Below are positions 20,620 to 64,000 of a stretch of DNA of 64,000 nt, in pieces (position 1 is the stretch's first letter; each line of letters starts with the position of its first letter). The translations under genes were made by a program, and so were the position numbers. Under the pieces are notes generated by a model, which was not told the DNA's origin, searched no databases, and saw only the letters and a program-made list of their open reading frames with translations. This DNA comes from Lingula anatina (taxonomy: Eukaryota; Animalia; Brachiopoda): positions 32,426,001 through 32,490,000 of the forward strand of contig CM120642.1 in the NCBI GenBank assembly GCA_051362555.1, in the 5' to 3' direction.

Positions 20620-20935
20620 GTTGGGTTCTTTCTCTTTCAGTTTCATACATGCATATACATTTCAGACGTGCAGTCCAGACTTCAACAAGCTGAAATGGTG
20701 TCTCGCAGAAAATTTCCCTCAGCCCTGGCTGCAAACCTGAGCTCTCTCTACTGCAGAAGATAGGGAAGACATTCTATCTTCTTAACTGACCTGAAGAGAA
20801 ATAACAGGACGCAATTAGCGATATGATTATTGGCATTATCCAGTGCAAGTTTTCAGCCAGTTCAACATCTGTAAATATTTATGGTTAACAAAACCAGAAA
20901 TGCAAGTCAAAGTTGAAGTGAATCAGGCTTCCTAA

Positions 20936-30882: not shown

Positions 30883-33800
30883 ATGCTGGCCCAAGAAGGT
30901 CCTGCTACTTCCACAGAGTCTAGTCCTCCACAGAAGGCAGTACGCCTGGTAGACTCCGTGAGAAAGGCAGCATGGATCATAGGCTCAGCTCTCATTACTT
31001 TTGCTGCTTTTAGGAATTCTGTTACTTGGTAAGATAATTGTTACTCTACCAATCTTGTAGAACTGGATGATGGAGTGAGTTATAGTTACTACTACAATTC
31101 ACATGGTGACTTGGTCTAAACCTTCAGGAATTGCTTCTGCTGCAGTAATAGAAGGACATTTGATTCCAAAGTTCTGAAAATGATTTCCTTTTCACCCAAA
31201 GTGTGGAGTGTACCTAAAAGTAGATTTTTTGCCCCAGCTAGTTTTTGCCATGTCTGACCTATGTTATTTTTAAAAAGTTAAAAAGAATTAGTTAAATTGG
31301 CAGTACTGTTATATACTGCAGTTCTGTTTTTATACTGAATTCAGTCTTTGACTTTATATTTATATTCAGTTTTTGACATTGTATTTATTTTTTAGGCATT
31401 TACAACAAGTGTGGGGTGCATCAGGAGATTTTTGGCAAAGACAGTGGGAGAAAATATACAATTTCTGTGATGGAAATGAGTTTGTCATAGGAGTAATCGG
31501 TAGGCTATATTATTTGCTTGTTTGTTAATAAGAGATAAAACTATTAAATTCCTGAGATAAATATGTATTGCCAACTTTAACTTCAACATACACATTTGTC
31601 AGTGGCCAGGTATGTTATAGTACAGCATCATATGATGACCTTAACAATATGGTGAAACTAAAAGGGAAACGCTTAGGCTAAGATCTTCAAAAAGTTTACA
31701 GTATCAATACTTGAAAGCCAGTACTGGAGTGACATTCAATATCGAAATACTATCTAAATATAACGGCATTTAAGGGAACTCAATCTTTTATTAGCTGCAA
31801 GTTTCCACGTCTCATATCTGTTTTAAATCCTTTAAATTTTTTTTTCTCAAATTTTTATCATTTGCAGGTGCTAATTTGCTTGCCTTGGTAGTATTCTGGA
31901 CATTCAATGCATTGTTCCTGCTAGTGGATGTTACAGGGTTTCCACAGAGTGTGCTCAAGTATAAGATACAGCCAGATGCTAACGTCCCTGTAAGTAGTCA
32001 TAGGACCCACTCCCGTAGACACTATCGATCTATGTAGATCGATCTCACTCTGTGGGGACTTCTGCTGAGTGCAAACAGCTTAACTGACTAACATGCCTCC
32101 TCCTGGGTTTTAAGTACAGTAGAAAAACAGAAAAGCTGTGTGTTTATCCTGATATGTTTGAAAACAAGAGGAGGCGTGTCATTCAGTTAAGCTGATTGCA
32201 CTCAGCAAGAGTCCCTGCAGAGTTGGATCAATCTACATTGACCAATGTTGTCTCTGGGAATGAGATCGTAAAGAATTGATGTGACCTGGTTTGTTAAGGT
32301 CTGCTTGATGCCATGTACCTGTTTTTATAAATGACATTCACATTAGAATACCTTATAAATGTGTTCAAACTGTTTACTTAAATATAATATGGTAATTGAA
32401 TGAATTTTCTATATTTTATCCTGTAACATGTGCAGTCAGTTCCTTAGATTCTCGAGACTGAGAAATTTAAGGCAGGGCACAGCTAGTTACTAACACAACC
32501 GTTTCCCAGCTTCCCTAAATTATTGTTTTACATTCACACACACACACACCAACACACACACACACACGTGAAAAATATTCTAATCAAAGGTTCTGCCTTA
32601 CATCAGGTGGACCGCAAAAAGCTGAAGAATGCAGTGCTCACAGTATTGTTCAACCAGATGGTGATTGGACTCCCAGTTTGTGCTCTGTGGTTCGTGGTGA
32701 TGAGATGGAGGGGTTGTCAGTACACGCCTGAAAGTCTTCCAACGTTTCAGTGGGTGCTTCTGGAATTACTGGTGTTTTCACTGGCGGAGGAGTTTTTCTT
32801 TTATTACTCACACAGGTAAGGCTGCGTTGTATTGGATTATTTAAAAAATCAAAGATTTATGATAAAAGAATTAACAGTAATACCTGTCATGATTTATAAA
32901 ATGAAATACCTTCTCCTAAGAAAAAAGAGAAATTTCACTGTTTCACCCCCCTCATTATTAATTTGAGAAAAAATGTTTAATGAATTCGACTGCTACTAGT
33001 ACATAAAATTAATAATATACGTGAATATTTAAACATCACTAGACACTGTGAGAAACTAAAACTTAAGTCAGATGAACATTTATTATAAGCAGTAGGGGGC
33101 TCGCCATTGAAAATTCAAGAGAATATTCATAAACTTTTTACTTAAAACTTGTGTAATTATGTGTTCAATATCCAGGACCTTTCATCACCCCCGCATTTAC
33201 CGCCTGATCCACAAGCGTCACCATGAGTGGACTGCCCCCATAGGGATCATAGCACTGTACGCCCACCCCATTGAACACATCTTCAGTAACATGTTACCAG
33301 TGTTCATGGGGCCGACCATCATGGGATCCCACATGGCCACTTCTTACCTGTGGCTTGTCCTGGCACTGTTGTCAACCACTGTGTCACACTGTGGATACCA
33401 CCTGCCCTTCCTACCCTCACCTGAGGCACATGACTTTCACCACTTCAAGTATGTATCTTTGTGAAGATGTCACAGTATTTTACAAGACTTTTTTTCAAAC
33501 AGATATTGTGTGAAATGTCATATAAGTTATGTGCACAAGAATGTGAGACAGTGGTAGTAGTCTTGAACCTCATTCATGACCTATACTCAGTGTATATGTA
33601 CTCAGGGTTGGCAATGCTGTATTTCTGAAACATTGCAGAGTTGTGAACCCAGAGAAACAAATGTGAACTGAAAAGACCATTTGGAATGTGACTATTTGGA
33701 ATGTGACTATTTTGCATATATTTATTTATAATTTTTTATAGGTTCACCAACAACTTTGGAGTTCTTGGTGTTTTGGATCGTCTTCATGGCACAGATAACC

Positions 33801-35462: not shown

Positions 35463-36643
35463 TCATGTAATAGAATCAACAATGTCACACATCATTACAT
35501 CTCGTAGATCTAGATAATCTCCCTCAGACTGTTTGTCATCTTGTTGTGTCTCTGTCGTGACGGTCTCTTCCTCCGTTTTCACCAGAAGCTTATTGTCCAA
35601 GCTGGTGTCACTAGGCAAAGAACTCACACAGGTTTGGAGCATTTCATACACTTTTTCCAAATGTTTCTGAAATCTGTCAGCGGTCTCTAATCTCTGTCTC
35701 TTCTGCACCTCTAACATGACACGCAAAGTCTCTCTTGCTTGGTGTGGACGGAATTCGTTGATTAAGTGATGTATGTGAATAAACAGGAGATTCAAATCAT
35801 CAATTTTTTCTGCTCGTTTCGGGGAATCGGGACTCTTTATAAGAATGTCCAGCAAATCTAAAAAGTTGGCCAGTAGAGAATGGTTGAGTTTTTTCAGTTC
35901 TTTTTTGTGGTCGTAATTCTGTGGATACAGTCTGCGCAATCCCTGACTCTCCAGGGGGCGAATGATGACATCATCTGCATGGAATGTATTCCCAAACATA
36001 GCATAGCTATCCTAAAAAAAAAAAAAAAAAAAACAATGAGATACTTTATATATGTCTGAAATTGTGCCAAAGTCATATCTTTACATCTAAATATCCTGTA
36101 AAATTTCTTATCCTTCAAAATTCACAACCAAAATTGGATAAAACTGCTCAAAACCTGTCTGATGTCCGAATTGCAAAATATCAGTTGATTAGAAATATGG
36201 TACAAAACATCAAATCCAAGAAAAATTGTTTGTAAGGTTTTTTTTCTTGAAGAAATGTGAATTTGGCACGAAAGATTCTGTATAGAATACCTTGAACTTC
36301 ACTTTAATTTTGCCTAGGCAAGGGCACGACAGGGGCGTAACCAGACCCTTTAAAATTGTACGCACAGATTTAGAAAATTTCCAGGTATGATTATATTCCG
36401 TGAAAAATACACTGAATTTATGGAGAATAATATCATGGTTGGCTCAAAAAATTGTATGCACAGTGCATCCGTGCGTATGCCTGGTTACGCCCCTGCATGA
36501 TAATGGACAATACTTGTTACCTGTATTGGGGGTGGTGGTTTGGGAACTCTTCCTCTGGCCACATTTTCATCTGTGTAGTGGTTAACAAACTGCATGGGAG
36601 GAAGAGGATAGGAGCTGCTTGTTTGCTGCTGACCATCTGCCAT
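35463..36643 (-). CDS. MED7: Mediator complex subunit 7
   Basis: Exon 36521-36643 ([41 protein letters not shown]) splices in phase 0 to 35463-36011 ([70 protein letters not shown]). These are characteristic MED7 motifs. Confidence 0.96.
36330..36495. mobile_element. MITE in MED7 intron, TIR CAGGGGCGTAACCAG, 5-bp TSD CACGA/CATGA
   Basis: Perfect 15-bp TIR CAGGGGCGTAACCAG / CTGGTTACGCCCCTG; flanks match at 4 of 5 positions. Confidence 0.8.
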
Positions 36644-38533: not shown

Positions 38534-41500
38534 ATGACAAGGCGACTGTTAATCAAGTACTCTCGCAATCTCGGCTGGTTTGTCAACAACCGTTATACAC
38601 AATCGAGAAGGCATCTCAGCGCTGACAGGTAATGTTTATAACAAAACTCACGATCCAGAAGTTACAGTAAATACTCCTGACATTTACATTCTGCGCTGCA
38701 GATGCGGAAATCTTAATTCTGATTTTAGGGGTCATTGCCCACAAGAAATGATATAGCTAATACGACCAATAGCTGCAGTGTTGCCGAGCATTGTCCACGG
38801 CTGTAAAGCACGTCTCATACACTAACACGAAAAACATATGCGTTCCCATTGGCATTTTTATTTACGTATTTTTTTTATCTGCTTTGTGTCTCGTTAGTGT
38901 TAAACAGAGCGTAAATTCACAATTAGTGGCCGGCAGTGTAGTAACGCCAGACTTTCAAACATTGCCTTAAGAGTACAGGAATTATGTCACCACTTGCAGT
39001 TTATCCCAAAATAAGTATGGGGGCTGGTGTAAAGAAACAGTTAAACCGTAAGCAGAGAAATATGCAAGTGGATAGGTAACGTGAAGGAATTTTTGATGAC
39101 AAAAATGTTCAGTATGAGAAATACAAATTGATACAAATTGCATCTTCTAAAGCCTATGCAGTAGACCACTCCGCCTAACATTGGCTCCCTGTGATTGCTA
39201 CAATGATGGAGTGGGGAGGATGACAAAAAAAAAAAAAAAAGATTTGAAAAAGGTCGTTAGAAATATTGAAAATAGATTGTAAATTTTAATTTTAATAAAG
39301 TACAAAATGCAAAATGAGTGTGAAACCTATATTGTAGCAAAATTAAAAATAATAAAATAAAATAAAATGAGTGAAAGAAAAAGAAAAATGCCATCTGTGC
39401 CTTATTATGTTCAACAATGTTTTATTACTCTCTGTCCTTTTCAGTGTCCATGAAAAAACAGGAAAGTTTTAATAAAGTACAAAATGCAAAATGAGTGTGA
39501 AACCTATATTGTAGCAAAATTAAAAATAATAAAATAAAATAAAATGAGTGAAAGAAAAAGAAAAATGCCATCTGTGCCTTATTATGTTCAACAATGTTTT
39601 ATTACTCTCTGTCCTTTTCAGTGTCCATGAAAAAACAGGAAAGTTGGACTGGAGTTATGTCCATGGACCTGCGGAGCGTCCTCTGATAGGGAAAACTATT
39701 GGCAGATTGCTAGACGAAACCAGTGACAGATGTGGAGATAGAACTGCATATGTGTTTTGTAGGGATGGAATCAGAAAAAACTTTACACAGTTTAGAAATG
39801 AGGTACAGGTTATAAGATGTAAATGCTGTTTTAAAATATTTCATTTAGCTGTACTTGCAGGAAAAACTTATAGGAATATCAGTTGTCAATTTGATGGCCT
39901 TTTGGCGAAAAAAAAAAAATTCCCATTTTTCTCTGTCACTGTGTACTACTGCCAGTGCATATCTGGTATGTTATATTAAATATAAATTTAGCTTTAATGT
40001 CTGTCTGTTCAGGTTGACCGTCTTGCAGCAGGTTTTCTGGCCCTTGGACTCGAGCCAGGGGACAGGGTTGGAATGTGGGGACCCAATACAGAGGAGTGGG
40101 TCCTGACACAATATGCCACTGCCAGGGTTGGCATAATACTGGTAAACTATAGCCTAGATTATACTTATTACAGTAATGGGTCCATCATTTCAATGGGGAA
40201 AATGTATCAATTTTTCAGGTACATAATTTTGGAAGCATTAAACATACATTTCTGTGTAGAATTGTGGTGCTCTTACTGTGTGGAATAGAACTATTACGTA
40301 GATATTCTGCTTTTCACTTGTGTTGCTGCCACTCAACAGTAATGTTTCAATTTTAAAAATTTATTACTGAACAAAAATACAGTATCTATAAAATTTGGAA
40401 TTTTCCCGGATTGAAAAGATCAAGCAGTTACCGTAGTTTTAAACCTTTTTTTGAAGAGGTAGAATAGCTGTTAAATTAAATTTTTTTCTCTATAGTTGAT
40501 ACACTGGTACCTGTATGGCGTACATGCCACAGAAGATTTTTTTCAGTAATTGGTTTAAAAAATAACACTATTCTGGTAATAACATGTAAAATATTGTCAA
40601 TTTAAAAAACAATACATATTTGTAACTGTACATACATAGAAATGGTTTGGAATGTTAGGAATGAATGAATTATTGGATTGAAGATGAAGAACTTTTTATT
40701 TACAGGTGAACATCAACCCTGCATATCAAGCTAAGGAATTAGAATTTGCCTTAAGGAAGGTAAACAATCCATTTTATTGAATAAGTTGAATATTTTCACT
40801 TCCTACTCAGGGGCGGACAGAAGCTGTCTTCTGGGTCTTCCAGGAGACAGTCAGAATTTTTCAAGTTTACATTGAAAGGTATCTAATTTTTCTGTCAGAA
40901 GATGGTCAAAAATGGAGGATGGATCATCAAAGAGAATTTGGAAGGCCGTCAAAATTATATATCTGGATCTGCCCCTGTTACTGAAAACAAAAATTTATAA
41001 CTAGCAACCTTGAACATTGGTCCCTTATTTACATAAATTTTTCCATGACTTTAGCTTGTAAGATTCACAGTCTGCCTAAAGGGAACTCATCTTTCTTGTT
41101 TTACTTGTCAAGTGCATGTACTGTCAACATACTTGTATTGAATCTTTCTTTTACTTTAACTTTTAATGTACTTTCATAACTAGTATATCAAATTACTTGG
41201 AACCAGTAGGTTATTTATCAAATTCAAATCAAACACAATTACATGTCAGTATACTTTAAAAAAAAATTACAAATTCGGAAAATAATATACCAGTATTGGC
41301 AGTTATGATCTTCAGTACAACATTTAAATAGTTCCCACTGGTACTCTGTAGAATTCTTTAACACAGTCACATTTTCACCTATTGATAAAGGTCTTGGAAT
41401 TTTCTTAACTACACTGTACTAACTACTCTTGTTGTATTAGTTATCAAAGATTCCTGTCAGTTTACTTTTCCTTTATTGTCATTGTTCTTATTTTGCATAT

Positions 41501-44500
41501 TTTGATTATTACATGTGCTCTGAAATATTTTCCTCACTTGATCAGTTCAAGAAGATGAGTCTGTCCTTGATATTGAAAACATTTCGCTCACTTGATCAGT
41601 TCAAGAAGATGAGTCTGTCCTGGATTTTGAAAACATTGACACAATATATCAAATGCCCTGTTAGGCTTCCTGGTTATAATGTCCAGGAATGCTGCAATTT
41701 CCTTTGGACATGCCACTGTTACATGATCAATTCAAGAAGATCAGTCCGTTCTTGTTCCAGCAGACACTGACACAGTGTAACATGTGCCTTTGAAGGTTTT
41801 CTCATTAGAATATCCAGGAATACTGCAACTTTCTCTGTATATTTCACCCTGTCAGTTGAGGGCTGGGCTTTCACTGTCTGAGCTTCACGGTCAGTGATGA
41901 TGCTTTCTTGGAGGAACATATCCAACATGTCCAGGAGACAAGGTTCTGTGATGTTTTCACACAGTTCAGTTTTATGTTTACGTATAGCTGAAAAAGATTA
42001 AACAATAGTGTATTATTTATTAAAAGCTTAAAGATGCATACAAAGTCAATTTTTTGTCACAAAAACCAACCAAATGCCAGCATATAGTTTCAGGTAGTAT
42101 AACTAAGAGAATTACCAAAAGGCATTGTTTAATTTTACCCGAAAATGATGTTTGAACAGATTTTTCTGCTGGCATTCTAAGCTGGATGTCAATGGGGTAG
42201 GAAAGTAGGTCACAGAAGTAGGTTAAATTTACAACCATAAATTTAAAGAAAGAAGCAGTCTAAAGGTCTTTTATGGCTGATCGAGTGATCTATTCAGTTT
42301 ATCCCTTGGCATGTCGAATTTATTTGAGCCATATAAGAATCTAGTAGAAGTGGTTTACATGTGTTACTGGGAATCCACACTCCACTGATGCTCGGTTCAT
42401 ATGTACCTTTAACACACATTATACTGGTAGTAGGTTCCTTAAAGGTGTGAGGCATTGCAATTAGCAGTTTTAATTCCATTGTAATATAGCAGTTGAATAA
42501 TGAAAATACAGTACCTGATCATCTGATCAATGATTTTACATACTAGTTTATGTACTCTGAATGCACTTTACATAATAATTATACATATATTAAGCATATA
42601 TACTGAAATACTGTTTTGTCATGTTTTGTCATGTTTTTACATGTCAGAAGTGTGTTCAAGACTTTATACTGCATTAACACAATAGTATGTGAGAGACAAG
42701 GTTGTTTATTATGTATCACCTTATAAGTTGAGGACACCCCGAATAGAAATGTATAATAGAATAAATATTATACAGATCAGTAGCATTATTCAGATTATTA
42801 CAAGTTTATGGATATGTCATCTTAAGGTGAAGAAAATGTTTTTAAACATTTTATATAACAAAGATCTTAAAAAAACAAAAGAAGTATGGAATCAAAATGC
42901 TAATTTTGTCAGTGCTGTGCTTACCATCCTGCCAGCTGGGTGGATAGACCAGGTTTGCAGGAATGTAGTCACCAGTATTGACACATGGAACCCACTTTTC
43001 TTTGGGGCCAGACCCTGGTACATTGGCTTGGTCAAGAATCTCTCCAGGGAAGAGAGTTGGTGATTTCTGAGTATATCTTTTTCTCTTGGTTGGTACATGT
43101 ACTTCTTCTGGATCTTGAGTAGTGGTTAGGGGAACATTAGGTGTTTCTTCAAGAAGGAGGGTTTGGTGCTCACTGTCCTTGTTGTCCTCACTCATACAGT
43201 GGGGACATACCAGGTACTTGTCATATCGCAACCCACGCCAGTCCTCATGAATGATGTCCATGAGGTCACGGTGGGCACGTTTTAGAACTTGCCACTGGTC
43301 GAAAAGATCTGTTCCACGGACAGCTATACTGATAATCCAGTCTGGGTCTTGCCCAGGACTAAGATTTTGCTGGTCTCTCCCCTTTGTCAGCAGCATTTTG
43401 CACCTCTCAAGTTCTGCATACATCCCATTCCTCCAGTCCATTCGTTTGGCCTTTAGGTATCCAAGATGCTTGTGCTGACGAACAGAAAATTTCTCATATA
43501 AGCCATCTGGACACTTGTACGGAAAGATAACCTGAAGAGTTAGTTGATTGATGTCTGGGGGAACCTTGCTGGGCCATTTGGTTTCTAGTTCAGGTTGTCT
43601 TTTTTCTTGAAGGAGACATGGAAAGTGAAAAGAAAGGTTAGACTCATGTTCCTGAACTTGGAAACACAGCTCAAGTTTCAGCAACAGATCTATCATGGCA
43701 TCAACTTCAGTGGGGGACAATTTGAAGGGCTCACACAAGCAGCTCATAGCTTGTCTAGATATGATGCCTCTGGTGAAGATGTCTTCATGTAAGGTGCGTG
43801 CTTTGTTTCTGGTAAACCTCATGGACATCTGGAGTTTTTGTAAAACTGCCTCTGGATCATGACTAAGTACTGCCTTGAGAACATTTTCAAGAACTTCTTG
43901 CTTGTGGAAAACAACTTTTGTCAGTGAGGGGCTTTTATCAAACCAAATGATGTCTCCTCGATGAGCGAGGAAACTTAAGATGTCACACATTATTTTCTCT
44001 GTTTCTGCATCTGCATCTCTCCATGCCGGAGGTGCAGACTGCATAATGAGTTCTTGAAGCATCTCCCAACCAAGCGTGTTTTCAGAGCCTTCTCGTTTCT
44101 TGGTGCAGATGTTCTTGGCTGCATCCAACCACATTCCTGGCAAAACTTCAGCATTTCCCCTGGCAAAATCAATGAGGTACTTTTTCAAATTTTCAACTCC
44201 ACTCATGTTTTTGGAACTCACCCTGAAAATATGCTCATGGATGGGTTGAACTTGCTGAGACAAGGACTGCATTTTATCTATTTTTTTTTGGTAGGCCTTG
44301 CGAAGAGCTGGTGGGAAGTCACTTGTTTCTTGTATTTCATTCTCAACAGTCTCTTTTTGAATGTCATACCACTTCTTATTTTTGTTTTTGTGGTCTTCAA
44401 GTTGTTTCTTTATTGCAGAACATTTTGTTTCTACACTTTGAGCTTCAACTTCATCAAGATGAGTTCCAATAAGTGCAATTTGTATCCCTGGCATCTGTGC

Positions 44501-47500
44501 TTGCACCTTGTCAATCCAGTCTCCAATATAGAGCTGATAATGAGCCTTGTCTTCTGGATCATATTTTGAAAGGTCAAAAGTGATGAAAACCAAGCTACTG
44601 GTATGTTTGGACATGAAAATTGGATGTCCTATTTTGTAGACCTCATGCCCCCCAAAGTCATTGATATTGAAGGCAATATCTTGGTCATATACCCATGTTT
44701 CTTGTTCCACCACTCTCGTCCTGTCTGCTGACTCAGTGGATGCTGGCTCTCCCAGTTGCAGTGAATGTGAAATGCTAGTTTTTCCCGATTCTGTTTCACC
44801 CAGAAAGTTGACCTGTATTCTACTTGACTGGATTGCCTTGGTGTCAGTTAAGGCCTCAAAATACCTGTTGATGGCATCTAGTCCTTGCTTGGCTGTATGT
44901 ATAGGTGGTTGAAGCAGAGGAGTACCTACCACATCTAGTTCTTTTAGACTTGCCATGTTCTTCATCTCAGCTGGCAAGCGAGTTATATTATTAAATGACA
45001 TACCAAATGACTGTAGTTTTTCCATTGTGGTAGCCTCCAGAGGTATGTCAGATAACTGGTTGTCACCCAGGTCCAGCTCCCTTAAGTTAGTCAAGCCACA
45101 CAGTGCTGTGGGAAATGTTTTGAATTCATTGTGAGAAAGCCAGAATATTTTAAGTCCCTTCATCCCAGTGATTTCTGTTGGTATGTCAGATAGCTGGTTT
45201 TTGTCTAGGTAAAGCTCCTCTAAGTTAGTCATGCCACACAGTGCTGTGGGGAATTTAGTGTACTTATTCTTATACAGATATAATTTTTTCAGTCTCTCCA
45301 GCCTGGTGATATTCTCTGGAATGTCAGATAACTGATTGTCACCCAGGTAAAGCTCCTCTAGGTTAGTCAAGCCACATAGTGCTATGGGGAATGTAGTTAA
45401 GACATTGTGATCGAGCATGAATATTTTAAGCCCCTTCATATTTGTGATTTCCTTTGGTATATCAGACAGCATATTGTTATTAAGGTAAAGCTCTTCTAAG
45501 TTAGTTAGGCGACAGAGTACTATGGGGAATGTTGTGAAGGCATTCCTGTATAGGTCCAACACTGTGAGGTGTGGCAGGTTGGATATGGACTGTGGTAAAG
45601 AAGATAACCTGTTACCTCCTGCTAATATATGCTTAGCATTTTCGCACCTGCCAATGGACTCAGGTAGACTGTCTTCTATATCAGCATGACTTATATCTAG
45701 TTTAGTCCATTGCAACACAGTTTTTAGTATCTGGGGCGTTGGAGACAACTGTAGTCTATGTAAGAGATCAAGACATTCCTTTCCTTCTGCTACTTGTCTG
45801 TAAGCCATGTTGGTAGAGAGGAGATCCTGCTGGTTCTTTTAAGTTTTTGTTGGTCTGTGTTACCATTGAAATTCAGAGAAGGGGAATTTTGTTTACTTTG
45901 CTAAAGAAATACTTTAGTTTTTCCCCCTGATTAGAAGCGAAAGCAGTTGATATTTTTACTGCAGTGCAGCCAAGCAGGTTTGTATATCCTAGATTTGATC
46001 TTCTTTGTCTTCTTCATCTTTATCTTCTGATAATTTGTAAATTGTGACCATTTCCACTGCTGGTTCTGGACCTTAAGCTTGTTTAATATGCTGAAAACTC
46101 TTTTTCTTTGGGTTTTAATAGCTCTATGCATATAACTTCTGGATAGGAATTGTCACCTGAAATGAAAAATTTGAAAAAAAAAAATTAATTATCTAAATGC
46201 ATACAATGCATATATTTGATTTAAAATTGGCTGTGATGTTGCCCTTAGAAGCTATCTTGGATGACTTCTCACCCCCCCCTCCCCCAAATCCAAAACTGTT
46301 GAGAAGTTAAGATCATGAATACCCCAAGAGCATACTGTCATTAAACTAATAATTCATGTTGTGCAGAAAGTGGCATTGGCTGTTCAAAGAGTTGCATCTT
46401 TACTGTTATATATGTAAACTCATCCAATACAACAGCGAGGGAAAAGTTTTAATAGAATGAAGCACATATTGTATTGACAAAAGAGGAGGGAACAGATTTA
46501 AATTGAGACATGCCCATCTATTTTATTCTAACAGATATTTACTGTTTAAAAATATGTTATATTTACAATGATATTTCACCATGTAAAGACCAACTCTTCA
46601 AGGACAATCTTGGATATGCAACTTATATATTATCAGTTGATTACTTTCACTAAGTATATAATATCTAATTCAAGAATACGTAAGAGGCACATGTTCAATT
46701 TCCAATCTCCTTCAAGCTGCATAGTAAAAATGATGCCTGCATGCTTTTAAAAGTCATTTATCAACAGAAAAAAATGATATGTTTATTGTTAAATTTTTTG
46801 CATAAAGTTAAATGCATGATTAAATGAATTCATAATAATTGAACTGGCTTGAGCCAATTTGAAAAGCCTTACCTTTTCTCATGTCATATACTTGCTACCC
46901 CTGCAAGCCATTATTTTTTTCACAGTGTATCCACCATCCTTTTATCGGTGTCTGATGGACATAGAAAGAAATGTTACAAGAAATTATACAATTGTGAAAG
47001 GAAAAAATCCAGAAAAAATAAGTAGTACGGATGGGTTCTGGACTTGGCAAACATTGCCGGGGTGGGGGGGATTCAGCTATAAGGGGGTGGTCACATGCCC
47101 TGTGCATGTGCATTTACTCCCTGGCTCCACCATTTAGAAGGAGACTTCTATAATTTTATTTAAAACTGAATTCTGAAGAAAGACCTTGTGTGTCAGATAT
47201 TGTTAAGTTCATGTCTGCTTCTGAGAAATGTGAAAATGAAGAATAGGCTAACGACATAGCTGTTGCTTTGGTTGGTAAATGACCAAGTACCCCCCTCCCA
47301 CACACACACACATACACACACAAAATACAATGTTTCTTCTATTAAATTTTATCAAATATCTTTGTTGTGTTTTAGCAGGAGAAATTCTTATCCTCCTTTT
47401 ATATTCTATTACATATTCTGCAAAAATAAATAAATAAATAAAAATTTAAAAAAATTGAATAATCCAGGTATCATATAGGATAATAAAATTCATTCATTGC

Positions 47501-48892
47501 ATGCTTGAAAAAAAAAAAATAGCTTGCTAGCTATCATCTCTGTATGTTTTCCTTATTTACAGTACAAATTTGACAATATCTTTTATAATTTTGCACACAG
47601 TTATCTAATTCGTTCATACCTAATACCTGCAGTGTCCTTGAGCATGTTATTTAAAGGGTGAAAAAATGGCTTCCACAAACACAGCTGTTACTAGTCACGT
47701 GATCCACTGTCAAAACAGTTGTTCTTTTCATGAAAAATGCCTTTGTGTTTTTCTTCTCTAACACAGTTGTATTGCTACAGGGCGGGTCGATCAGAGGCTG
47801 ATATAATATATATAGGATTCCAATATCAAGAACAAAATGACACATGATTAGGCTTTAATTGGAGACCTACATGTTTTATTTTTATGTATGTACACAGTGT
47901 GCATGTCTGTATATATTTGATACTGTCCCAGTTGCCATTATCATTTGTGTCATATGTTGGTGGCACTGTGCACTAACCTGTTTTTTTTTCACATAAACAA
48001 AATGAAAGGACAATCCCATTACTTATGATGCTCAAACCAACAGGAATTATTTTAATACAGTTCAATTAAAATACTATCCTGAAATGCCAGAAATTCATTC
48101 TTTGTCTGTATCTAAAAAGTTTGCTGTATTTCTCCAGGTTGGATGCAAGGCCATAGTGGCTGCCTCAGAGTTCAAGACCCAGGACTATTATCAGATGCTA
48201 TTCCAGATAAACCATGAACTTGCCTTCTGTAAACCTGGCCAGCTCAAGAATCCACAGTTAATATGGACTTTACTATCTTTGCTTGCTTGTATAATTTACA
48301 TTTATTTAATGAATTTTTTAAAGTTTTGGAAGTTTTGCATCATATTCAGAGATCTTCTCAATTTGTAAATCCTTGCACAGTTAATGCTGATTTTACCTGC
48401 AGCTAGATGTCTGAAAACAAAAATGTGTCTGATATTAAAAATGGAACTTATTTAACATTTTATTGATGGACTAAAAAAAATTAAGGCTTTTGATAATTGT
48501 AAGGGCTATATATTTCTTACAAAGGCTATGATTTTCATGGTTTTTTTTTTTTTTTTTGCAGTTTGCCAGAGCTTAGTATAGTGATTATGCTTGGCAAAAA
48601 GAAATTCCCGTAAGTATATATCACACACAACCATGCATATTGATTAGTTAACCTTATGATAAATGTTTCCCTTGCTTTTATGTTCTATATGCTTAAATGG
48701 TTATCCATATATATATGTATGCTGGGGTAGCGCTAACACTCGCCAATTTAGCCAAATGCTAAAACTGGCCTTAATTGGCTAAGGAAAACGGGCTTGACTT
48801 TACTTGTTTCAGTCAAATTATAACCATTTTGATAACAAATTGATAAAAAATTTGTATTTTGGCCAAGCGAAATAAAATGCTGGCGCAACCCC

Positions 48893-51002: not shown

Positions 51003-54000
51003 TGGGGGGGGGTGTATTTTTGGTCTGGCATTGGACATTTTGATTTTCTTGTAATATACATCTGGTGGTATTCAAATATTGACGGGGTTGTCCTGTGATA
51101 TAAGAAACTATTTATTCTGAGGGATTGTGTATGGTGCACAGATCTACATCTATTGCCTGCAGCTGTAATGACAAAAACCACCCATGTCTGCTCTGTAAAA
51201 CTTTCCCCAAGATTCCAAGCATTTCCTGGCTTAAGACTATTCATACGAACAAGTCATGCAAATGCAATTTGTTTTACAATTTCTTTTCACACAATGCACA
51301 ATTTCTACTGCAGATGTACTGCACTTTACGGCACCCCCACCATGTTCATAGATATGCTAAACCACCAGAACTTCTCCAGTTATGACCTTGGAAGCTTGTA
51401 TACAGGTAAGTGGATAAGAGACCATGCACAATGAATTTTGTTGACCTAGCTAATGGCCAATGGGGACATCTGCTGAAAGTAATCAGGTTTACGGACAAAC
51501 AAGCCTCCTCTTATTTCCAACACAGGCCCCATTGAGAATGAGAAGATCTGAGTGCTAACTGGTCCACAGCTCAAACATGGCGAACCTTCATAAGGGAAGA
51601 CCACTTAATTTTGAAATGGTCTCTCTGCCCCCCCCCCAGAAGTCGTCCGTGAAGTAATTAAATCTGGACTCCATTTGACCAGACAAGTGGGAAGGGGTGT
51701 GGTGTGACAGGGGGAGAGACCATTACAGGATTAAGCGGTCTTTCTTTCATGTAGGGTCTGCCATAATTGAGCCTTGGACTAGTTCATTGATACTCAGATC
51801 CTCTATTCTGTATGGCCCTGTAGTTGTATAATCATCAGCTTTTCTTTATTCTACTCAATGCCACTGTGAGTCCCCTTAGACTTTGTGCCCCTAAGCAAGG
51901 TTGACTACCAGTATATTCATTTTGAATGGTCCCCAAAGGGTCTGCCTAATTAATGACCACAAATGGCTACAAACAACCACAAACATAAAATGGTTGAGAA
52001 ATCAGTTTATATATATATTAACTGATTTCCCAACCATTTAATGCTTGTAAACATTTGTGGCCGTTAATTAGACAGATCATCCCCAAGTGCATGTGCAAAG
52101 AGAGAAGAAATTCTGTTGTCTACTTCTCAGTCTTCTCAAAATTAATTATTCCAGATACTGATTAAATGATTTACATTAAAGCTAATGATCAAATGTAACA
52201 GTTAATTACTCAAATTCTTTGATTTTCTTGATTCTTTTAAAATCAATTTCCAAGTTGTACATGTCATATATCATATCTTAGTTTTCACAAGACTGAAGTT
52301 GCTCTTGATTTTAGGTATTATGGCGGGCTCGCCTTGTCCATCTGTCATTATGAAACAGGTTGTCATTAACATGCATATGAAGCATTTGACAGTAAGTTTC
52401 CTGGTGCTCACTGGTATTGTTTTACAGCATTTGGTTCCCAGAACCATCTTACAGGATCGATCCATCTTCGAGGGGTTTTATGATAAATTGCTTTCAACAT
52501 AAGCGGCTAAAATGTCTATCACGCCTACTGAAGCTGCTAAACTATATGATTAATTACCCCCTAGCAGCTTAAGTAGACATCTAAGCAAGTTGATTGCAAT
52601 TTAGCAAGAATTCCCTGAGAGATAGATCGATCCACAGTTAATATGATAGGATATGGGAATGGTCCCTTAGATAAAGGTTAATTTACACTGTATTGGTGCC
52701 TGGTTACCATTAGAGGTGTTACAGAACCATATTTTCTGAAGAGAGAAATATAAAGAGGGGCATAAATTCAAGAGTTTGTAGGGTGGGGAGCAGTATTAAG
52801 AGCATTTTTCTGTGCACCAATACTTTGTGATTGGCCTAATCTTACACAAGTATGCTACCCCTGGTATGATGTAAATGTTGTTCATCAATAATTACAGGCA
52901 TCATTGGTGGGACCCCATGCCCAGTAGCAATCGTAAAACAGGTTGTAAAGACCATGTATATGAGTTATATTACAGTAAGTCAAAGGTCACAGTAATTAAA
53001 TATATACATCATATTGCCTGCATGATGTTAACAAGCACCTGGACATTTTTTGTTGAAGGGTTTTTTGTGCTTCTTTGCAATATATAAAACTGACATTAAC
53101 ATTACATTAAATAAAACTTTTAAGGTACAGTATTAAATGGGATTAGGTATAAAGTGTACTTAAAAAGTAAATATGTTATGTCCCAGTGATGCTCAAAGTT
53201 TTGAGTTTTGATCTGCAGCATTACAGAGGTGGAAAAAATTAAACTGGTAAAATGTGCTCCATTTTGCAATGCAAAACGCATTACTATATGTAGCACATAC
53301 ATGTAATTAAGTTTTCACAGGCCTTCTGCACACAGTTTCGCGAGAGGACACTGGTCTTGGTTTATGTACAGCTTTGGGGTGAATTCTCCCTCAGTTTTTA
53401 GTTTTTCCTGCCTTAATTATTTTCATAGATAGTTTAAATTCTGTTAGATGTTCTTCCTAATATTAAGGATAAGGATGCTTCACAGGATTAAATTCTGTTA
53501 GATGTTCTTTCTAATATTAAGGATAAGGATGCTTCACAGGATTAAATTCTGTTAGATGTTCTTCCTAATATTAAGGATAAGGATGCTTCACAGGATTAAA
53601 TTCTGTTAGATGTTCTTCCTAATATTAAGGATAAGGATGCTTCACAGGATTAAATTCTGTTAGATGTCCTTCCTAATATTAAGGATAAGGATGCTTCACA
53701 GGATTTAGCAGATTGGTTTTATTCCTTTGCTTTTTCTTCATTTTTGTTAGTTTGTGACGCTTTTCTTTATTTTTGGAACCAAATCACTTTCATGTAGATT
53801 ACTAACAAGTACAAATGTGCAACAGCTAGGGACACTGTACAACAGTATTTTTATTGACAAAAAACCTTGAGGAACACTCTTATGTATGAGTACCAAGTGA
53901 TTATGTAACAATAAACAATAACTAAGCCAGGGGCGGATTTAGGGCGTCTTCTGGGTCTTCCAGAAGACGGTCAGATTTTTAATTTTACATTGACGGTTAT

Positions 54001-56306
54001 CTATTTTTTTCTGTCGGAAGACAGTCAAAAATGGAGGATGAATCAACAAAGATAATTTGGAAGACTGTCAGCAAATAACTCTGGATCCGCCCCTGTAAGC
54101 AGTACTGTTTTGATGGCATTCTCTTTCAAAATACATTTTATCAGTCTGCTACATACAGTTAGCCTTGTTTTGTTCAAGGTTTGCTATGGTACTACAGAGA
54201 ACAGCCCAGTGACACTCCAAAGCTTCATGGAGTCACCTTTTGAAAAGAGAGTGTCCTCAGTGGGAAAGGCTTCCGCTCATGTGGAGGTGAGAGACAAAGT
54301 TTTGGACAAAATTTACTTTAATAAATCAAAATGGCAAATATGGAACCTGCACTGTGCAGTTAAATAGTTAATAAAACTAATCATTAGTAAAACAGGGTGG
54401 AGTGAGCAGCAAGCATTATTTCAAACGTTTTGATATGAATACACTTAATCTGCCTTTTTGACGAAAAAAAGATTCCCTCGGAGAGAAAATTTGATCCAAC
54501 CTCATGGTCATTTCTCAAAGTAGATCCACAAACATAGTGAATTAAACAAAGTCTTCCTTTTCAGAAAAAAAAAACCTGTCTCAGAATTGCAAGTTTTAGG
54601 TCTGGCCTGGTTTAAAAACAGCAAAACATGGCATTTTCCTATACATATCCCAGCCACTTTAAAACTCCATCATAGCAACAAAACCAGTAATGAATACATC
54701 TGTATGTTTTAGCTCAAAGTGGTAAACAGCGAGGGTGACATTGTCCCTGTGAACACAGTGGGAGAGCTCTGTACAAGGGGGTATGCCACCATGTTAGGCT
54801 ACTGGGGTGATGAGGACAGAACAAGGGAGGTGGTCAAACCAGACGGATGGTATCACACTGGGTAATCCATTCTAGATTATGGCCCCATTCAGAATAGGGG
54901 ACTAACTAGTCCGAGGGTCAAATGTGGCCGACCCACTTGAATACTTCCCAATGCGATATATATTCAGTGACTATTAGCAGATTAGATAGCAAGCTTTGTG
55001 GTGGGTAGCCATATTTGACCCAGGGATGTTGTCCTGCTTTGCTTGCAACTTCTGTCATTGTAGCAGAACCTTTGATCAGTGCCGTCTACTTACAATGTAT
55101 TGTCCAAATTCTTCCATTAAAGCATAAAAAACACCAAAAATAATGTAACTCTAACCATAAAGTCAATTTATTCACCACAAAGAGAGTATAAATATTGAAT
55201 TAATGTTTGCATCAATGTCATTATTTTAGAGATTTGGCCTTTCTAGACGAGGAGGGCTATGGTCATATCACGGGGCGTCTGAAGGACATGGTCATACGAG
55301 GCGGAGAGAACATCTACCCTCTGGAGGTGGAGGAGTTTCTCTATACTTACCCTAAGATTGAGGACGTTCAGGTGAGTGGTTGAAGTACGTGCCAGTTAGC
55401 AGCAGTATTTACAACATGAAACATCACTAAAATAAAGTGTACCAGCAAATTTATCATATCATTTAAGGTACACTGGTGCATTTTGAAAATTATCTGGCCA
55501 CGTGTCTGCACATCCCCTTTAACTTTACCAGTGAAAAAGAAGTTGTCCAAACTGTTGACTATTACAAAATCATTTTCAAAGTTTTAAAGCAATACATATG
55601 CCACATATCCCCCTCATATAACAAGCATTAAGTCATATTAACGAAATGACTGTGTATTTAAGGTGATAGGAGTACCTGATGAGAGACTGGGGGAAGAGTT
55701 GTGTGCCTGGGTCAGGCTGCACAAAGGGGAAACTGCCACACAGGAAGAAATTAAAGAATTTTGTAAAGGAAAGGTAGGAGGGAAAAATAAAATGATTTTT
55801 GTAACATATGTACATTGGTCATAAAAAGGAGTTATTTCAATTGCAATTTTGTGAGGTTAACAGAAAATTTTCTTGGAACCTACCAATTTTGAAATGTGTG
55901 ACATAAATAGCAATCTCCTTGGAACGTGCGCCAAGTTTGTGAGAAGTGACACTTTTTTGAGATGTTCAAATCTTCGTGGCACTATCAAGTTTTTTTCCTA
56001 CATTTTGTGATGAAATTTAGTAAATTTTTCTTCAAAGGCTGAGAAGAAGCATTTGTTTTATCAATAAATGTCTAAATCCACAGCATATATATATATATAT
56101 ATATATTTAAAATTGATATATTAGTATAGTACACGTATGAAATCCGACTTTTCAATAATTTTTTCCAGATATCTCATTTTAAGATACCAAAGTACATCAT
56201 GTTTGTGGACAGTTTTCCTCTGACAGTGACAGGCAAAGTTCAGAAGTTCAAGATGCGTGAACAGAGCACAAAAGAGCTGCATCTGGACCATGTGATACCC
56301 CACTAG
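38534..56306 (+). CDS. ACSF2: Medium-chain acyl-CoA ligase ACSF2, mitochondrial (ANL adenylate-forming enzyme)
   Basis: Exons 38534-38628 (Arg-rich presequence [29 protein letters not shown]), 39622-39802, 40013-40141 ([10 protein letters not shown]), 40706-40759 (VNINPAYQ), 48138-48256, 48562-48609, 49431-49548 (INIQFTS), 50135-50230 ([20 protein letters not shown]), 50678-50826 (PPLYHCFG), 51314-51405 (YGTPTMF), 52315-52391 or 52898-52974 (alternative), 54179-54286 (YGTTENSP), 54713-54861 ([13 protein letters not shown]), 55230-55371 ([18 protein letters not shown]), 55663-55773, 56169-56306 ([14 protein letters not shown]). Confidence 0.95.
39290..39643 (+). repeat. Exact 177-bp tandem duplication spanning ACSF2 exon 2 acceptor
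   Basis: 39290-39466 equals 39467-39643; acceptor TTTTCAG|TGTCCATGAAAAAACAGGAAAG ends at both 39444 and 39621. Confidence 0.95.
40808..40977. mobile_element. MITE, TIR CAGGGGCGGA, copy 1
   Basis: CAGGGGCGGA...TCTGCCCCTG; flanks CTACT/TTACT; colinear with 53928-54095. Confidence 0.8.
41534..41715 (-). pseudogene. Relic/duplicated copies of the CARD C-terminal half directly behind the Roco stop codon
   Basis: 41588-41715 translates [42 protein letters not shown], aligning without gaps to [38 protein letters not shown]. It is followed by a 54-bp re-duplication, [17 protein letters not shown] (41534-41587). Confidence 0.75.
41719..45808 (-). CDS. MFHAS1/MASL1-like Roco protein (LRR-Roc GTPase-COR) with C-terminal CARD-like death-fold domain, nested antisense in ACSF2 intron 4
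   Basis: Exon 42925-45808: about 11 LRRs of 23 aa; Roc P-loop [10 protein letters not shown]3 DFGGH, G4 GTHLD, G5 VSSK; COR ending CPHC..FPGEIL..LVYPPS like MFHAS1. Donor GATG|GTAAG at 42924 splices in phase 1 to exon 41719-41987 ([73 protein letters not shown]), which has a CARD-like pattern. About 1050 aa in total. Confidence 0.9.
45040..45530 (-). repeat. Coding tandem repeat: 138-bp (46-aa, two-LRR) units, about 4 copies
   Basis: The anchor GTCAGATA(A/G)CT or its variant recurs at ~45047, 45185, 45323 and 45461 (period 138); peptide unit [46 protein letters not shown]. Confidence 0.9.
48722..48894. mobile_element. MITE-like element embedded in (TA)n
   Basis: Inverted ends CTGGGGTAGCGCTAACA / TGCTGGCGCAACCCCAG; flanked by TA-dinucleotide runs, (TA)n 48895-48950. 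Confidence 0.6.
50951..51003. repeat. (TG)n microsatellite
   Basis: Direct inspection. Confidence 0.95.
51525..51818. mobile_element. Degenerate Harbinger-like MITE related to the 60600 element
   Basis: Starts GGCCCCATTGAGAAT with imperfect inverted arms; shares TCTCTC..GTCGTCC..GTAATTAAATC blocks with 60600-60745. A truncated relative lies at ~58119-58263. Confidence 0.65.
51940..52078. repeat. Imperfect ~140-bp palindrome with (TA)n loop
   Basis: TCTGCCTAATTAATGACCACAAATG..AAATGGTTGAGAAATCAGTT-(TA)n-AACTGATTTCCCAACCATTT..CATTTGTGGCCGTTAATTAGACAGA. Confidence 0.75.
52315..52391 (+). CDS. ACSF2: ACSF2 alternative exon 11a (77 nt): [26 protein letters not shown]
   Basis: TTAG acceptor, ACA|GTAAGT donor, phase 1 in and phase 0 out; carries the ACSF2-typical GIMAGSPCP motif. 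Confidence 0.9.
52433..52666. mobile_element. Harbinger-like MITE between ACSF2 exons 11a and 11b
   Basis: GGTTCCCAGAACC..GGATCGATCCATC / GATAGATCGATCC..ATGGGAATGGTCCC; reverse-complement similarity to 22952-23208. Confidence 0.7.
52898..52974 (+). CDS. ACSF2: ACSF2 alternative exon 11b (77 nt): [26 protein letters not shown]
   Basis: TACAG acceptor, ACA|GTAAGT donor; same length and phases as 11a; open frame with a gap-free paralogous peptide. Confidence 0.8.
53434..53703. repeat. 54-bp tandem repeat, 5 near-identical copies
   Basis: Unit TTAAATTCTGTTAGATGTTCTTCCTAATATTAAGGATAAGGATGCTTCACAGGA. Confidence 0.95.
53928..54095. mobile_element. MITE, TIR CAGGGGCGGAT, copy 2, exact 5-bp TSD TAAGC
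   Basis: TAAGC|CAGGGGCGGAT...ATCCGCCCCTG|TAAGC. Confidence 0.82.
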
Positions 56307-61134: not shown

Positions 61135-61914
61135 TAATACAATATTCTTCAACGGGTGTATGGTTTCACAGAGGCATAACTAATAAACTGGTACTTGAGC
61201 AGATTTACCTTATCCACAGTACTGTTGATGGCAATAGTTGTTGACTTTAAAATGGTGTTTGACTTGAGGTTGTGAGAGGTAAGCTAAAGAATTGATAGGT
61301 CCTGACTTACAGCTGACTAAATATTGCTGGCTGTCATTTTACATTTATGTGTACCTTGCATGCATCTTTCATGCATTAGCACATATATACGTAGGAGATA
61401 TTAGAAACTGAAAAAGGAATGCTAAGATATGAAACTGTGCTATGCCTTACACTGAGGCAGTTGAAAGTGACCAGTATACAGATAGTTTCATCATTCATAT
61501 TTTGACGGTACAATTTTTTTATTTTTTATTTTAGATAACCTCACGTCTGTTAAAAGTACAAAGGCGAGGACTGTTCCACCATGTAGCGCTGCAGTCTCTA
61601 TGGTAATGGGGCTGTTAGCCTATACTTGAGTCACAGTTGGGTCCAGTGTCACATACTTACAAGCCCTTATATATCCGCAACCTTATACCTGGGTCTCAGA
61701 GCCACACCAGAGCTTGGTGGGTGCATACTTAACATTCATACATGTGGGCCATTTTCTATTGCCAGCGTCCACTTCCTTTCCATCCCCTGGTATCTAACAA
61801 GCTCCTAGTAGACCAGATGAAACTACAGCAGCTTGGTCTTGTCTTGTGTTGAGCACTGTTTGCATCAAGTGTTTCCTAGCTTGGTTTGTGGTGCCCTCTA
61901 TATAGGGTGTCACC

Positions 61915-63488
61915 ATGAGGTTCAATGCTAAGGAGATGGCAGCACTGGCCAAGGAACCCAAGGACAAGTTTGACCAAGAGGGGGTCCTATGGGTGAAAGA
62001 AAAACAGGAAGGATTATTCCGAAAAGGGGAAGGTAGGATTTTTGTCTCTAATTAGATTTGAAGAGTTGTAGATTAAATATAGATCTGATTTCTATCTGAA
62101 TGCCTGTTGGAAATTTGTTTATCAGAAGGGTTATGTAACTTTAAAGGAGTTGGACTATGTACTGTAACAATAAATTACCAAAATACAGTACACAGTTTTA
62201 AACTTGAAAGCACAGCTTAATTTCAAAAATTGTTGCGGTTTGTGAAATTAAAAGAAAATATGTCTCTAGTTTCTTAGAAGTTTCACTTTCAAAACTTGAC
62301 CTCTCAAGGTATGAATATATAACTAAAGACCATCAGATTATAAAATTATGATTTCTGAATGAGACACAGCTTATTTCATTCCATGTGCAAATTTTATGCA
62401 CAATTTCCCTCAAGATTAAATGCCATCTTATAACATACATTGTTTTTTGCAGTTTATGTGCAGAGATGGTGCCGACTGCGTGGAAATGTCCTGTTTTACT
62501 TCAAATCTAAAGAGCCAGTGAGTATTGATATATGGAGGCTTTGAAATAACTGTAATTGTATAGTCTGAATAGCAAACATGTTAATAGAAATCTTTTGTTC
62601 TCAAAAAGATATTTATTATAGATATACATTATAGATATTTATCAGAGGCATTATTTCTTATTTAAGTTGCTTTTTTCTTCCTGCAGACATCAGAACCTTA
62701 TGGTGCAATTATTCTTGAGAGATGTACAGTTGAACTAGATCTCAAGGAAGAAATGCAGTTCTCTTTCCAAATTGGTAAGTCAGTATAAAAGTGCTCACTT
62801 TACACGTTGGTTTATTAGTTTCTTTTGATCAGCCTTCCATCTAATTTACATTTACTAATACTTCCAAGGCAGTTAGAAAATTGCAGCTAATTTGATTTTG
62901 AGTTTGACTAAATTGATCATAATGGTAGTGCCAAAGCTATTGAAAATGAATTGACTTTCTGACCTCTTCTAACCAGTGTTAGAAATTAAGGCTGGACCGT
63001 CTGCCCGGGGCAGACAACTTTCAGAACAGGCAGAGAAGTTTTCCCACCCGGCAGGCATTCTGGCCAGCTAATTTCCAAGATGGCTGAGCTTTCAGTCCAG
63101 CAACTTATTTTCCTAAGAGGCAAACACTGCTTCTAACAGTGCCTCTGAAACCTCTTACCCACTACCACCAACCATTCAACTTTTACGTCACAATTTTCTC
63201 TTTTGATGCTCTTTAAGCATTTTGTTTGTTTCTGCATCTCTCTAATATATTTACTTGATGCCTTGTTATTTTTTTCTTGCACAGTGTTTGAGGGTGATGA
63301 CAGAGTCCAGTTTTTTGCTGCCCGTACAGAAGAAGAGCGAGATGCGTGGATTGAAGTCCTCCACATAGCCAGCTATGAGTGTCTCAAGATGCAGTTGGAG
63401 AGTCTCCGTGAGCAGATCAGGAATAAAACTGGGAAGGATCCCATTGATGACCCCGACCCCACAGTACTAGAGGATAACACAGAAACAG
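61915..63488 (+). CDS. PLEKHJ1: Pleckstrin homology domain-containing family J member 1-like, 5' part; probably continues beyond right edge
   Basis: Exons 61915-62032 (MRFNAKEMAALAKEPKDKFDQEGVLWVKEKQEGLFRKGE), 62453-62517 (VYVQRWCRLRGNVLFYFKSKEP), 62687-62774 (TSEPYGAIILERCTVE..FSFQI), 63285-63488 (VFEGDDRVQFFAARTEEERDAWIEVLHIASYECLKMQLESLREQIRNKTGKDP). The MR(F/Y)NxKE start and the ASYE..TGKDP tail match PLEKHJ1. Confidence 0.88.
62974..63129. mobile_element. hAT-type MITE with exact 8-bp TSD
   Basis: CTTCTAAC|CAGTGTT ... AACACTG|CTTCTAAC. Confidence 0.8.
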
Positions 63489-64000
63489 GTAGGACAAATC
63501 AGTACTCTTCTTTTGGTTTTAAATTTTTTTCTTAATTGATGAAGAGATGCCCCTGGCACACAGTGAAGTCTACCTTTGATGCATCTGCATCATAAATTAC
63601 AGGGCTCACCCAAGCCAAAAGGCTGTGTGTGGGGACTGTCTATGAAATTGAAAGCTTTTTTTCAAGTGCATCACATATTTTGATTTGGCTTTGTAAAATG
63701 TAATTTAATTTTTTTAAAGCCGGATTTGTAGTTATCTATATTAGAATTTATTTTGACTTAATATTATCTAGCTATTTGCCATTTGGACTTTGACCTCAGT
63801 GAGCCCAATTAATGATGATGGATTTGACAAAACACAAAATTTGAGACAAACATTTATCTATAAGAGGTGCATTTGTGCTACTTTTGTGTATTATTGATTG
63901 ACTGATAGTTTGACCAAATATCTTCATTCATATGGTAAACTAATAATAAGGTTTTGTTTATGGTTAGTTACTACTGAAATACAAAAAGGAAAAAAAAAAA

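Follow-up and report, generated by a model that had tools for sequence, protein, structure and literature searches.

Within a 64-kb stretch of the genome of the brachiopod Lingula anatina (contig CM120642.1, positions 32,426,001 to 32,490,000; hereafter the window, along which all positions are numbered), a first-pass annotation proposed that an exon encoding leucine-rich repeats (LRR), a Roc GTPase and a COR domain is spliced to a CARD-like exon on the minus strand, inside an intron of a gene on the opposite strand. This raises the question of whether such a gene exists as an expressed unit and, if so, what a GTPase of this composition would do. The locus was found to hold an intact, transcribed LRR-Roc-COR-CARD gene belonging to a Lingula-specific expansion, and its sequence and modelled structure suggest that the product is probably a Roco-based, NLR-like cytosolic immune or danger sensor, that is, a Roco protein and not an NLR.

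The proposed coordinates and exon join were confirmed in the sequence. The coding part of the large exon (42925–45808, minus strand) starts with an ATG at 45808, comprises 2,884 nt (961 codons plus one base), encodes the LRR, Roc, and COR domains and a Cys/His linker according to translation and Pfam, and has read depth in three of four RNA runs. It ends at a phase-1 GT donor at 42924, and a GT-AG intron of 937 nt (41988–42924), visible in sequence and reads, separates the COR linker from the CARD exon, which is preceded by a pyrimidine-rich AG acceptor at 41989–41988 and has a coding part of 269 nt (41719–41987; 89 residues plus stop). Splicing of these two coding exons gives a reading frame of 1,050 residues with a single terminal stop.

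The four RNA runs, which carry the same species label (X1, X4, X7, and X8), were placed on positions 39000–47200, with 6–26% of each run being used. The junction from 42925 to 41987, which the annotation expected in stranded RNA sequencing, was present with CT..AC ends in four reads with four starts in one of the four runs (X4). Reads in X7 (five) and X8 (two) splice from the same donor and have five other letters at the join, fitting a close paralog (P0035), while X1 has no junction read and almost zero depth over the gene. The first mate of X4 is oriented plus over the exons of the window gene and minus over the host exon, from which it follows that the gene is antisense to its host, as had been claimed. 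Read-through past the donor into a short tail, with an open reading frame to 42851, is not regarded as the main form, as junction reads exist and depth is 0 at 42562–42835 in all four runs. Joints within the LRR of net 138 or 414 nt were also seen; these were not taken as splicing because they lack GT-AG ends, and they fit either copies that differ in repeat number or reads cross-mapped from one repeat to another. A dispersed repeat lies within the CARD intron at about 42028–42412, where reads reach high depth and many of their ends are loose.

The closest protein to the joined product is L. anatina XP_013413808.1, a RefSeq entry of 1,054 residues automatically named "MFHAS1 homolog," which is 90% identical over the first 960 residues and 94% identical in the CARD, and which has the same exon join. 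Both structure models discussed here are of the RefSeq copy (P0003) and not of the joined protein of the window. The model built from a 33-row alignment reached a mean predicted local distance difference test score (pLDDT) of 81.5 and a predicted template modelling score of 0.72, and it matched LRRK1, CtRoco (6hlu, E 4.3e-29), and LRRK2 over 830–1,060 columns. The model built on a single sequence was poor except in the CARD (mean pLDDT 37.3).

The LRR-Roc-COR architecture put forward for the large exon was thus upheld by structure and also by Pfam, in which the joined protein matched LRR_8 (E 4.9e-35), Roc (2.9e-9), COR-B (7.6e-11), and CARD (1.2e-9). With COR-A matched at 7.4e-6, under its curated cut-off, the protein has the succession of Roc, COR-A, and COR-B that defines Roco proteins. 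No kinase family was found among the 18 Pfam matches, and the same scan returned neither a NACHT nor an NB-ARC domain, Roc being present instead, nor a catalytic effector domain. All domains were located on the minus strand. The LRR array (residues 34–296; 44921–45709) consists of ~11 repeats of 23 residues in alternating A and B units with a 138-nt period, identified by Pfam and repeat analysis, and has a pLDDT of 82–97 per block. The Roc domain (44150–44833), supported by Pfam, motifs, and the model, carries the four motifs named in the annotation, with G1, G3, and G4 present by pattern and G5 read by eye in the translation; its G4 region aligns to the Roc of LRRK2, and a helical hairpin insertion of ~65 residues appears between G4 and G5 (about 44249–44452) in the model. 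The COR region (43181–44143) is divided into COR-A (about 43604–44143) and COR-B (about 43181–43546) by Pfam, the model, and structure matches. The linker that follows (42926–43213), delimited by alignment and model, contains a conserved CPHC motif, a distal Cys and a disordered insertion (residues 876–916, pLDDT under 50). Its residues C870, H872, C873, and C944 are conserved in 28–31 of 30–32 rows and may form a possible metal site.

The suggestion that the C-terminal exon is CARD-like held well, and a death fold was recovered. The exon product matched PF00619 with 38.5 bits against a cut-off of 23.9, and the last 94 residues of the RefSeq copy adopt a CARD fold even when modelled with no alignment. 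The closest structural matches were the CARDs of Apaf-1 (Z 12.3, root-mean-square deviation 2.1, 88 aligned residues), caspase-1 (12.1), NOD1 (11.5), and NLRC4 (11.4); CARD-bearing chains filled 14 of the 15 top rows, the remaining one being a designed protein, and DED and death domains reached Z values of at most 7.7. At the sequence level, phmmer with the CARD sequence alone gave no matches in the PDB, and a profile search matched CARDs weakly.

The description of the gene as hidden and unique did not hold. The gene model is already in RefSeq, the same four-domain order occurs in the amphioxus Branchiostoma belcheri (XP_019643705.1), and Roc-COR proteins with CARD have been published for Trichoplax (Civiero et al., 2014; PMC4104024). 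The surprise is therefore limited, since every pairing of parts has a precedent. Civiero et al. describe at least 17 Roc-COR genes in Trichoplax with CARD, death, TPR, or LRR domains. No published description of the Lingula family or of the LRR-Roc-COR-CARD order was found in the literature searched, the Lingula immunome paper (Gerdol et al., 2018) being outside its coverage; a literature search for "Lingula" with "MFHAS1" gave no results, and PMC6321704 mentions neither Roc nor COR.

The proposal that the gene belongs to an expanded family was well supported. Across the searches 41 Lingula-named records were collected, with a CARD in 31 of them (24 by tail alignment and seven more by Pfam or a custom CARD profile), and the number of genes is likely ~30. 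The word-based search alone gave 29 matches, 28 of them from L. anatina; of these 28, 14 bear marks of LRR, Roc, and CARD together and 18 bear that of CARD. Four CARD-less models (P0004, P0005, P0017, and P0026) end at or just past the donor position, which suggests that the intron is conserved. In a FastTree phylogeny of 41 Roc-COR rows hand-picked from about 195 proteins, with no vertebrate rows and an unresolved base, 15 of the 16 Lingula rows, including that of the window, formed one clade (98 SH-like), with P0068 falling outside on a long branch. In three further Lingula models (P0039, which is XP_013404860.1, P0017, and P0040), an N-terminal kinase precedes LRR-Roc-COR-CARD, a HEPN fragment is present, or two units are fused; these could be real fusions or merged gene models.

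Variation within the family is receptor-like. By pattern, LRR counts range from 3 to 26 across the family and from 9 to 15 in full-length close copies. Compared with XP_013413808.1, the LRR is the least conserved folded domain (87% vs. 91–94%). Entropy, computed over 59 A and 67 B units taken from 17 proteins, is highest at the beta-strand positions 5, 7, and 8 on the predicted binding face of the LRR, with 2.55 and 3.11 bits against 1.57 and 1.22 bits at nine further positions outside the consensus, and among the window gene's own repeats the ratio of nonsynonymous to synonymous differences per site (pN/pS) is 0.50/0.58 = 0.86 on the face and 0.19/0.53 = 0.36 elsewhere. In the CARD, the identities of the N-terminal half and tail are only loosely correlated (rho 0.37 for 78 pairs of 13 close copies), with pairs reaching 91–96% in one and 29–36% in the other; between P0009 and P0020, for example, the N-half is 96% alike, against 36% for the tail. 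Judged from the predicted paralog proteins, this mosaic was likely caused by unequal crossing-over that swapped CARD tails, with gene-model error being another possible source.

A spare, stop-free copy of the C-terminal half of the CARD is located in the 3' untranslated region directly behind the stop codon (41588–41716, minus strand; 72% DNA identity, 131-nt spacing), and sequence comparison revealed a third piece of CARD tail of 54 nt at 41523–41576 on the same strand. The last 28 residues of the spare tail are 89% identical to the tail used by P0035, vs. 50% to that used by the window gene, and comparison of the spare tail also gave 30 identities in 40. Use of this tail through splicing was considered and rejected, as no such joint is among the joints listed in the reads and the nearest GT-AG pair, found by eye, shifts the frame. 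Reads of X7 and X8 skip about one 54-nt unit in 41523–41716 (minus strand).

Outside Lingula, the word-based searches, which returned almost only Lingula, had suggested that the layout is unique to this genus; this was overturned by the full HMMER search. The profile search covered 1.84 billion representatives and yielded 4,398 matches at E 0.001 (the best 150 of the 4,398 being listed and 20 named), and a domain scan was made of 21 chosen proteins, which are no random sample. Among these 21, LRR-Roc-COR-CARD was found in B. belcheri (XP_019643705.1 and KAI8484076.1); the former groups with mostly amphioxus sequences in a separate clade, in which it is surrounded by members bearing Death, GT4, and ankyrin domains. 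One protein (P0074) has LRR-Roc-COR with two CARDs, its Roc-COR coming from a profile match and not Pfam, and LRR-Roc-COR-Death occurs in two freshwater mussels, the anemone Actinostola, and amphioxus. Trypsin_2 and GT4-conflict (glycosyltransferase) domains fill the same C-terminal slot in amphioxus relatives, and the alternation of CARD, Death, Trypsin_2, and GT4 indicates that LRR-Roc-COR is the constant part and the last slot is exchangeable. The custom CARD profile matched eight of 141 new proteins, six of the eight being from Lingula. In the Atlas, a Roc-COR cluster has CARD in 26% of its 85 members, with Porifera commonest, and Roc-COR-Death clusters are commonest in molluscs. Five proteins (P0061, P0052, P0058, P0066, and P0073) are relatives that end in short RHIM-like motifs, which suggest another effector type; no Pfam RHIM match was obtained at E 2e-5 in the four that were scanned.

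The sensor reading is based on the dozens of copies, the face-biased LRR variation, the mosaic CARD halves, the swappable slot, the CARD fold, and the report of a CARD caspase, NLRC, and GSDME in Lingula by a predictive study (PMC11508797). By analogy, GTP binding and hydrolysis and a dimer-monomer cycle are predicted for the window protein. CtRoco forms a dimer in the nucleotide-free state and is monomeric when GTP is bound, the opening taking place at the LRR-Roc hinge, and LRRK2 dimerises via COR-B and has an autoinhibitory LRR (PMC11052575). Following these two proteins, the receptor at rest would be a closed COR-B dimer that opens around the LRR-Roc hinge on GTP binding. Ligand bound to the LRR arm would favor the open GTP state of Roc-COR and free the CARD, and the exposed CARD, as in other CARD biology, would recruit a CARD-bearing caspase or adaptor and seed CARD-CARD assembly, leading to caspase activation (cell death) or to signaling of the NF-kB type. 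Unequal crossing-over, which likely alters LRR number and swaps CARD tails between copies, would allow input and output to be tuned separately. The signaling nucleotide state is less certain than the sensor role, because a dimer could equally bring two CARDs together. A search that gave five members of the LRR-Roc-COR-CARD family returned no Lingula caspase or adaptor CARD.

Several observations weigh against this reading. The GTP-driven monomerisation of CtRoco would not alone cluster CARDs, and other Roco proteins act in trafficking, the cytoskeleton, and development (PMC4104024, PMC6337361). The LRR is as conserved as Roc in comparison with P0024 (91% vs. 90%), with several farther paralogs lying within a few points. 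The repeats behind the entropy contrast are related to one another and not independent, and many LRR proteins show variation at exposed concave positions. Among the window gene's own repeats the face pN/pS, which is based on 14.5 synonymous sites, is not above 1 and is no proof of positive selection; relaxed constraint fits too. The 41 records include split halves or possible alleles (P0028 and P0034 are 98% alike), which lowers the number of genes they represent. Expression is low in the three runs that show the gene and near zero in X1, and most placed reads in the four runs are 90–95% alike to the window, indicating an origin in other individuals or populations and, for part of them, in paralogs.

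The alternative that survives best, although it is rather unlikely, is that of a non-immune signaling scaffold, in which a Roco protein at membranes or the cytoskeleton would link through its CARD to developmental apoptosis or stress signaling, with the LRR as an autoinhibitory lid only. Such a role would agree with the LRR of LRRK2 (PMC11052575), with the part that Roco proteins of Dictyostelium and of plants take in chemotaxis, division, and patterning (PMC11378527, PMC4104024), and with the effects of human MASL1 on ERK signaling and necrotic death (PMC4104024), but it leaves the dozens of lineage-specific copies, the face-biased variation, and the swapped effector domains unexplained. It is improbable that the protein is a decoy or brake, the CARD of which binds caspase or adaptor CARDs and dampens signaling under GTP control, as CARD-only inhibitors do. 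The Pfam scan without a catalytic effector and the mere two CARDs of a Roco dimer would suit a decoy, as would the weak sequence match to ICEBERG (E 0.0084); this match is, however, weaker than those to Apaf-1 and caspase-1, and catalytic effectors (trypsin and GT4) in the same slot of relatives fit an activating output. Neutral spread of a repeat-prone family, leaving the window copy with little function, is very improbable, since the dispersed copies, the split or truncated models (P0024 plus P0035, and P0017), the low expression, and the intronic site with dispersed repeats are set against an intact 1,050-residue frame, conserved G motifs, correct splicing, a confident model, and a pN/pS of about 0.36 off the LRR face.

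The immune or danger sensor thus preferred was compared by the annotation with NLRs. Like NLRC4- and NOD1-type NLRs, the window protein has sensor repeats, a nucleotide switch, and a CARD in one chain. However, NLRs have a NACHT ATPase with a CARD at the N-terminus and an LRR at the C-terminus, whereas here a Ras-like GTPase replaces the NACHT or NB-ARC STAND ATPase and the order of effector and LRR is reversed. The analogy is loose for this reason and because CtRoco, the best-studied LRR-Roc-COR protein, becomes a monomer on GTP rather than forming a ring. Vertebrate MFHAS1/MASL1, a group-1 Roco protein, is also LRR-Roc-COR without a kinase, and the nearest Atlas clusters of the window protein are named MFHAS1 homolog; it is described as LRR and RocCOR only (PMC6337361), with no further domain after COR, whereas the window protein has a CARD exon spliced on. 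Human MASL1 binds GTP and changes its complex state (PMC3995007). DAPK1 has an N-terminal kinase, no LRR, and a death domain after Roc-COR (PMC6337361), a composition which differs from that found here; the three-group Roco scheme in the available text of the same source does not mention CARD.

Similar in layout are the prokaryotic LRR-AP-GTPase-COR-effector systems (Kaur et al., 2021; PMC8195603), in which variable N-terminal LRRs, Roc-COR, a swappable C-terminal effector, and many paralogs are likewise combined. These have been proposed to act against invaders, and a similar role of the present family would be by analogy; "COR+CARD" occurs 0 times in the searched text of the 13 supplementary files of that paper. 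The brown algal ROCO candidate immune receptors are likewise an expanded LRR-Roc-COR family with diversified LRRs, but have one exon per LRR (PMC11378527), whereas all LRRs of the window gene are in one exon and a CARD is added. LRR-Roc-COR-TIR proteins have been reported in anemones and Aplysia (PMC5094078, PMC9334734), and CARD fused to AIG1 GTPases in amphioxus (PMC12373286). It is tentatively suggested that these proteins may form a third class of cytosolic immune receptor in marine invertebrates, parallel to NLRs and RLRs, built of an LRR-Roc-COR switch with an exchangeable C-terminal effector, the expansion having taken place independently in Lingula, with CARD, and in amphioxus, with CARD, Death, trypsin, and GT4; the Lingula copies would trigger CARD-caspase death, recombination would reshuffle LRR number and CARD tails, and the region behind the stop codon would serve as a store of spare tails. 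If the family does sense microbes, surveys restricted to NACHT overlook intracellular receptors by the dozen in both Lingula and amphioxus. A natural LRR-Roc-COR-CARD protein ties the Roc-COR switch to an output that is easy to assay, such as CARD clustering or caspase activity, and thereby makes it testable what GTP cycling turns on in Roco proteins that lack a kinase, a question that also concerns human MFHAS1 and LRRK2.

The remaining parts of the gene lie on the minus strand. The 3' untranslated region (41068–41718, end approximate), seen in sequence and reads, has poly(A)-type signals at 41477 and 41167. The 5' untranslated part of the large exon (45809–46156) is supported by sequence and low read depth, with an acceptor predicted at 46157, the junction of which is absent from the junctions listed in the reads; a non-coding upstream exon probably has its end at 46873. 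The predicted 5' region contains four upstream ATGs, which could limit translation.

The host intron (40760–48137, plus strand) measures 7,378 nt, in agreement with the 7.4 kb given by the annotation, and interrupts an ACSF2-like acyl-CoA synthetase gene with an AMP-binding Pfam match. Host exons 40013–40141 and 40706–40759 are spliced in the reads, and host coding resumes at 48138. The number given to the intron by the annotation, the fourth, is tentative, three upstream host exons having been seen. The host is putatively named ACSF2, in keeping with the AMP-binding match. The acceptor region of a host exon (39375–39683, plus) seems to be tandemly duplicated ~177 nt upstream, with identical translation at 39375 and 39552. 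Dispersed repeats that likewise show deep read coverage and numerous loose ends occur at 40829–40943 and 53928–54070, the former having an 83% identical copy in a later host intron. Neighboring genes include a weakly matched PH-domain exon (20227–20661, minus), presumably Tec-like, a fatty-acid hydroxylase gene (32487–33464, plus), MED7 (35463–36011, minus), and a PH-like gene at the right end of the window (61906–63535, plus), a neighborhood which may be similar to one at human 5q33. A degenerate tandem repeat array, seen as repeated translations, is present at about 12100–13700.

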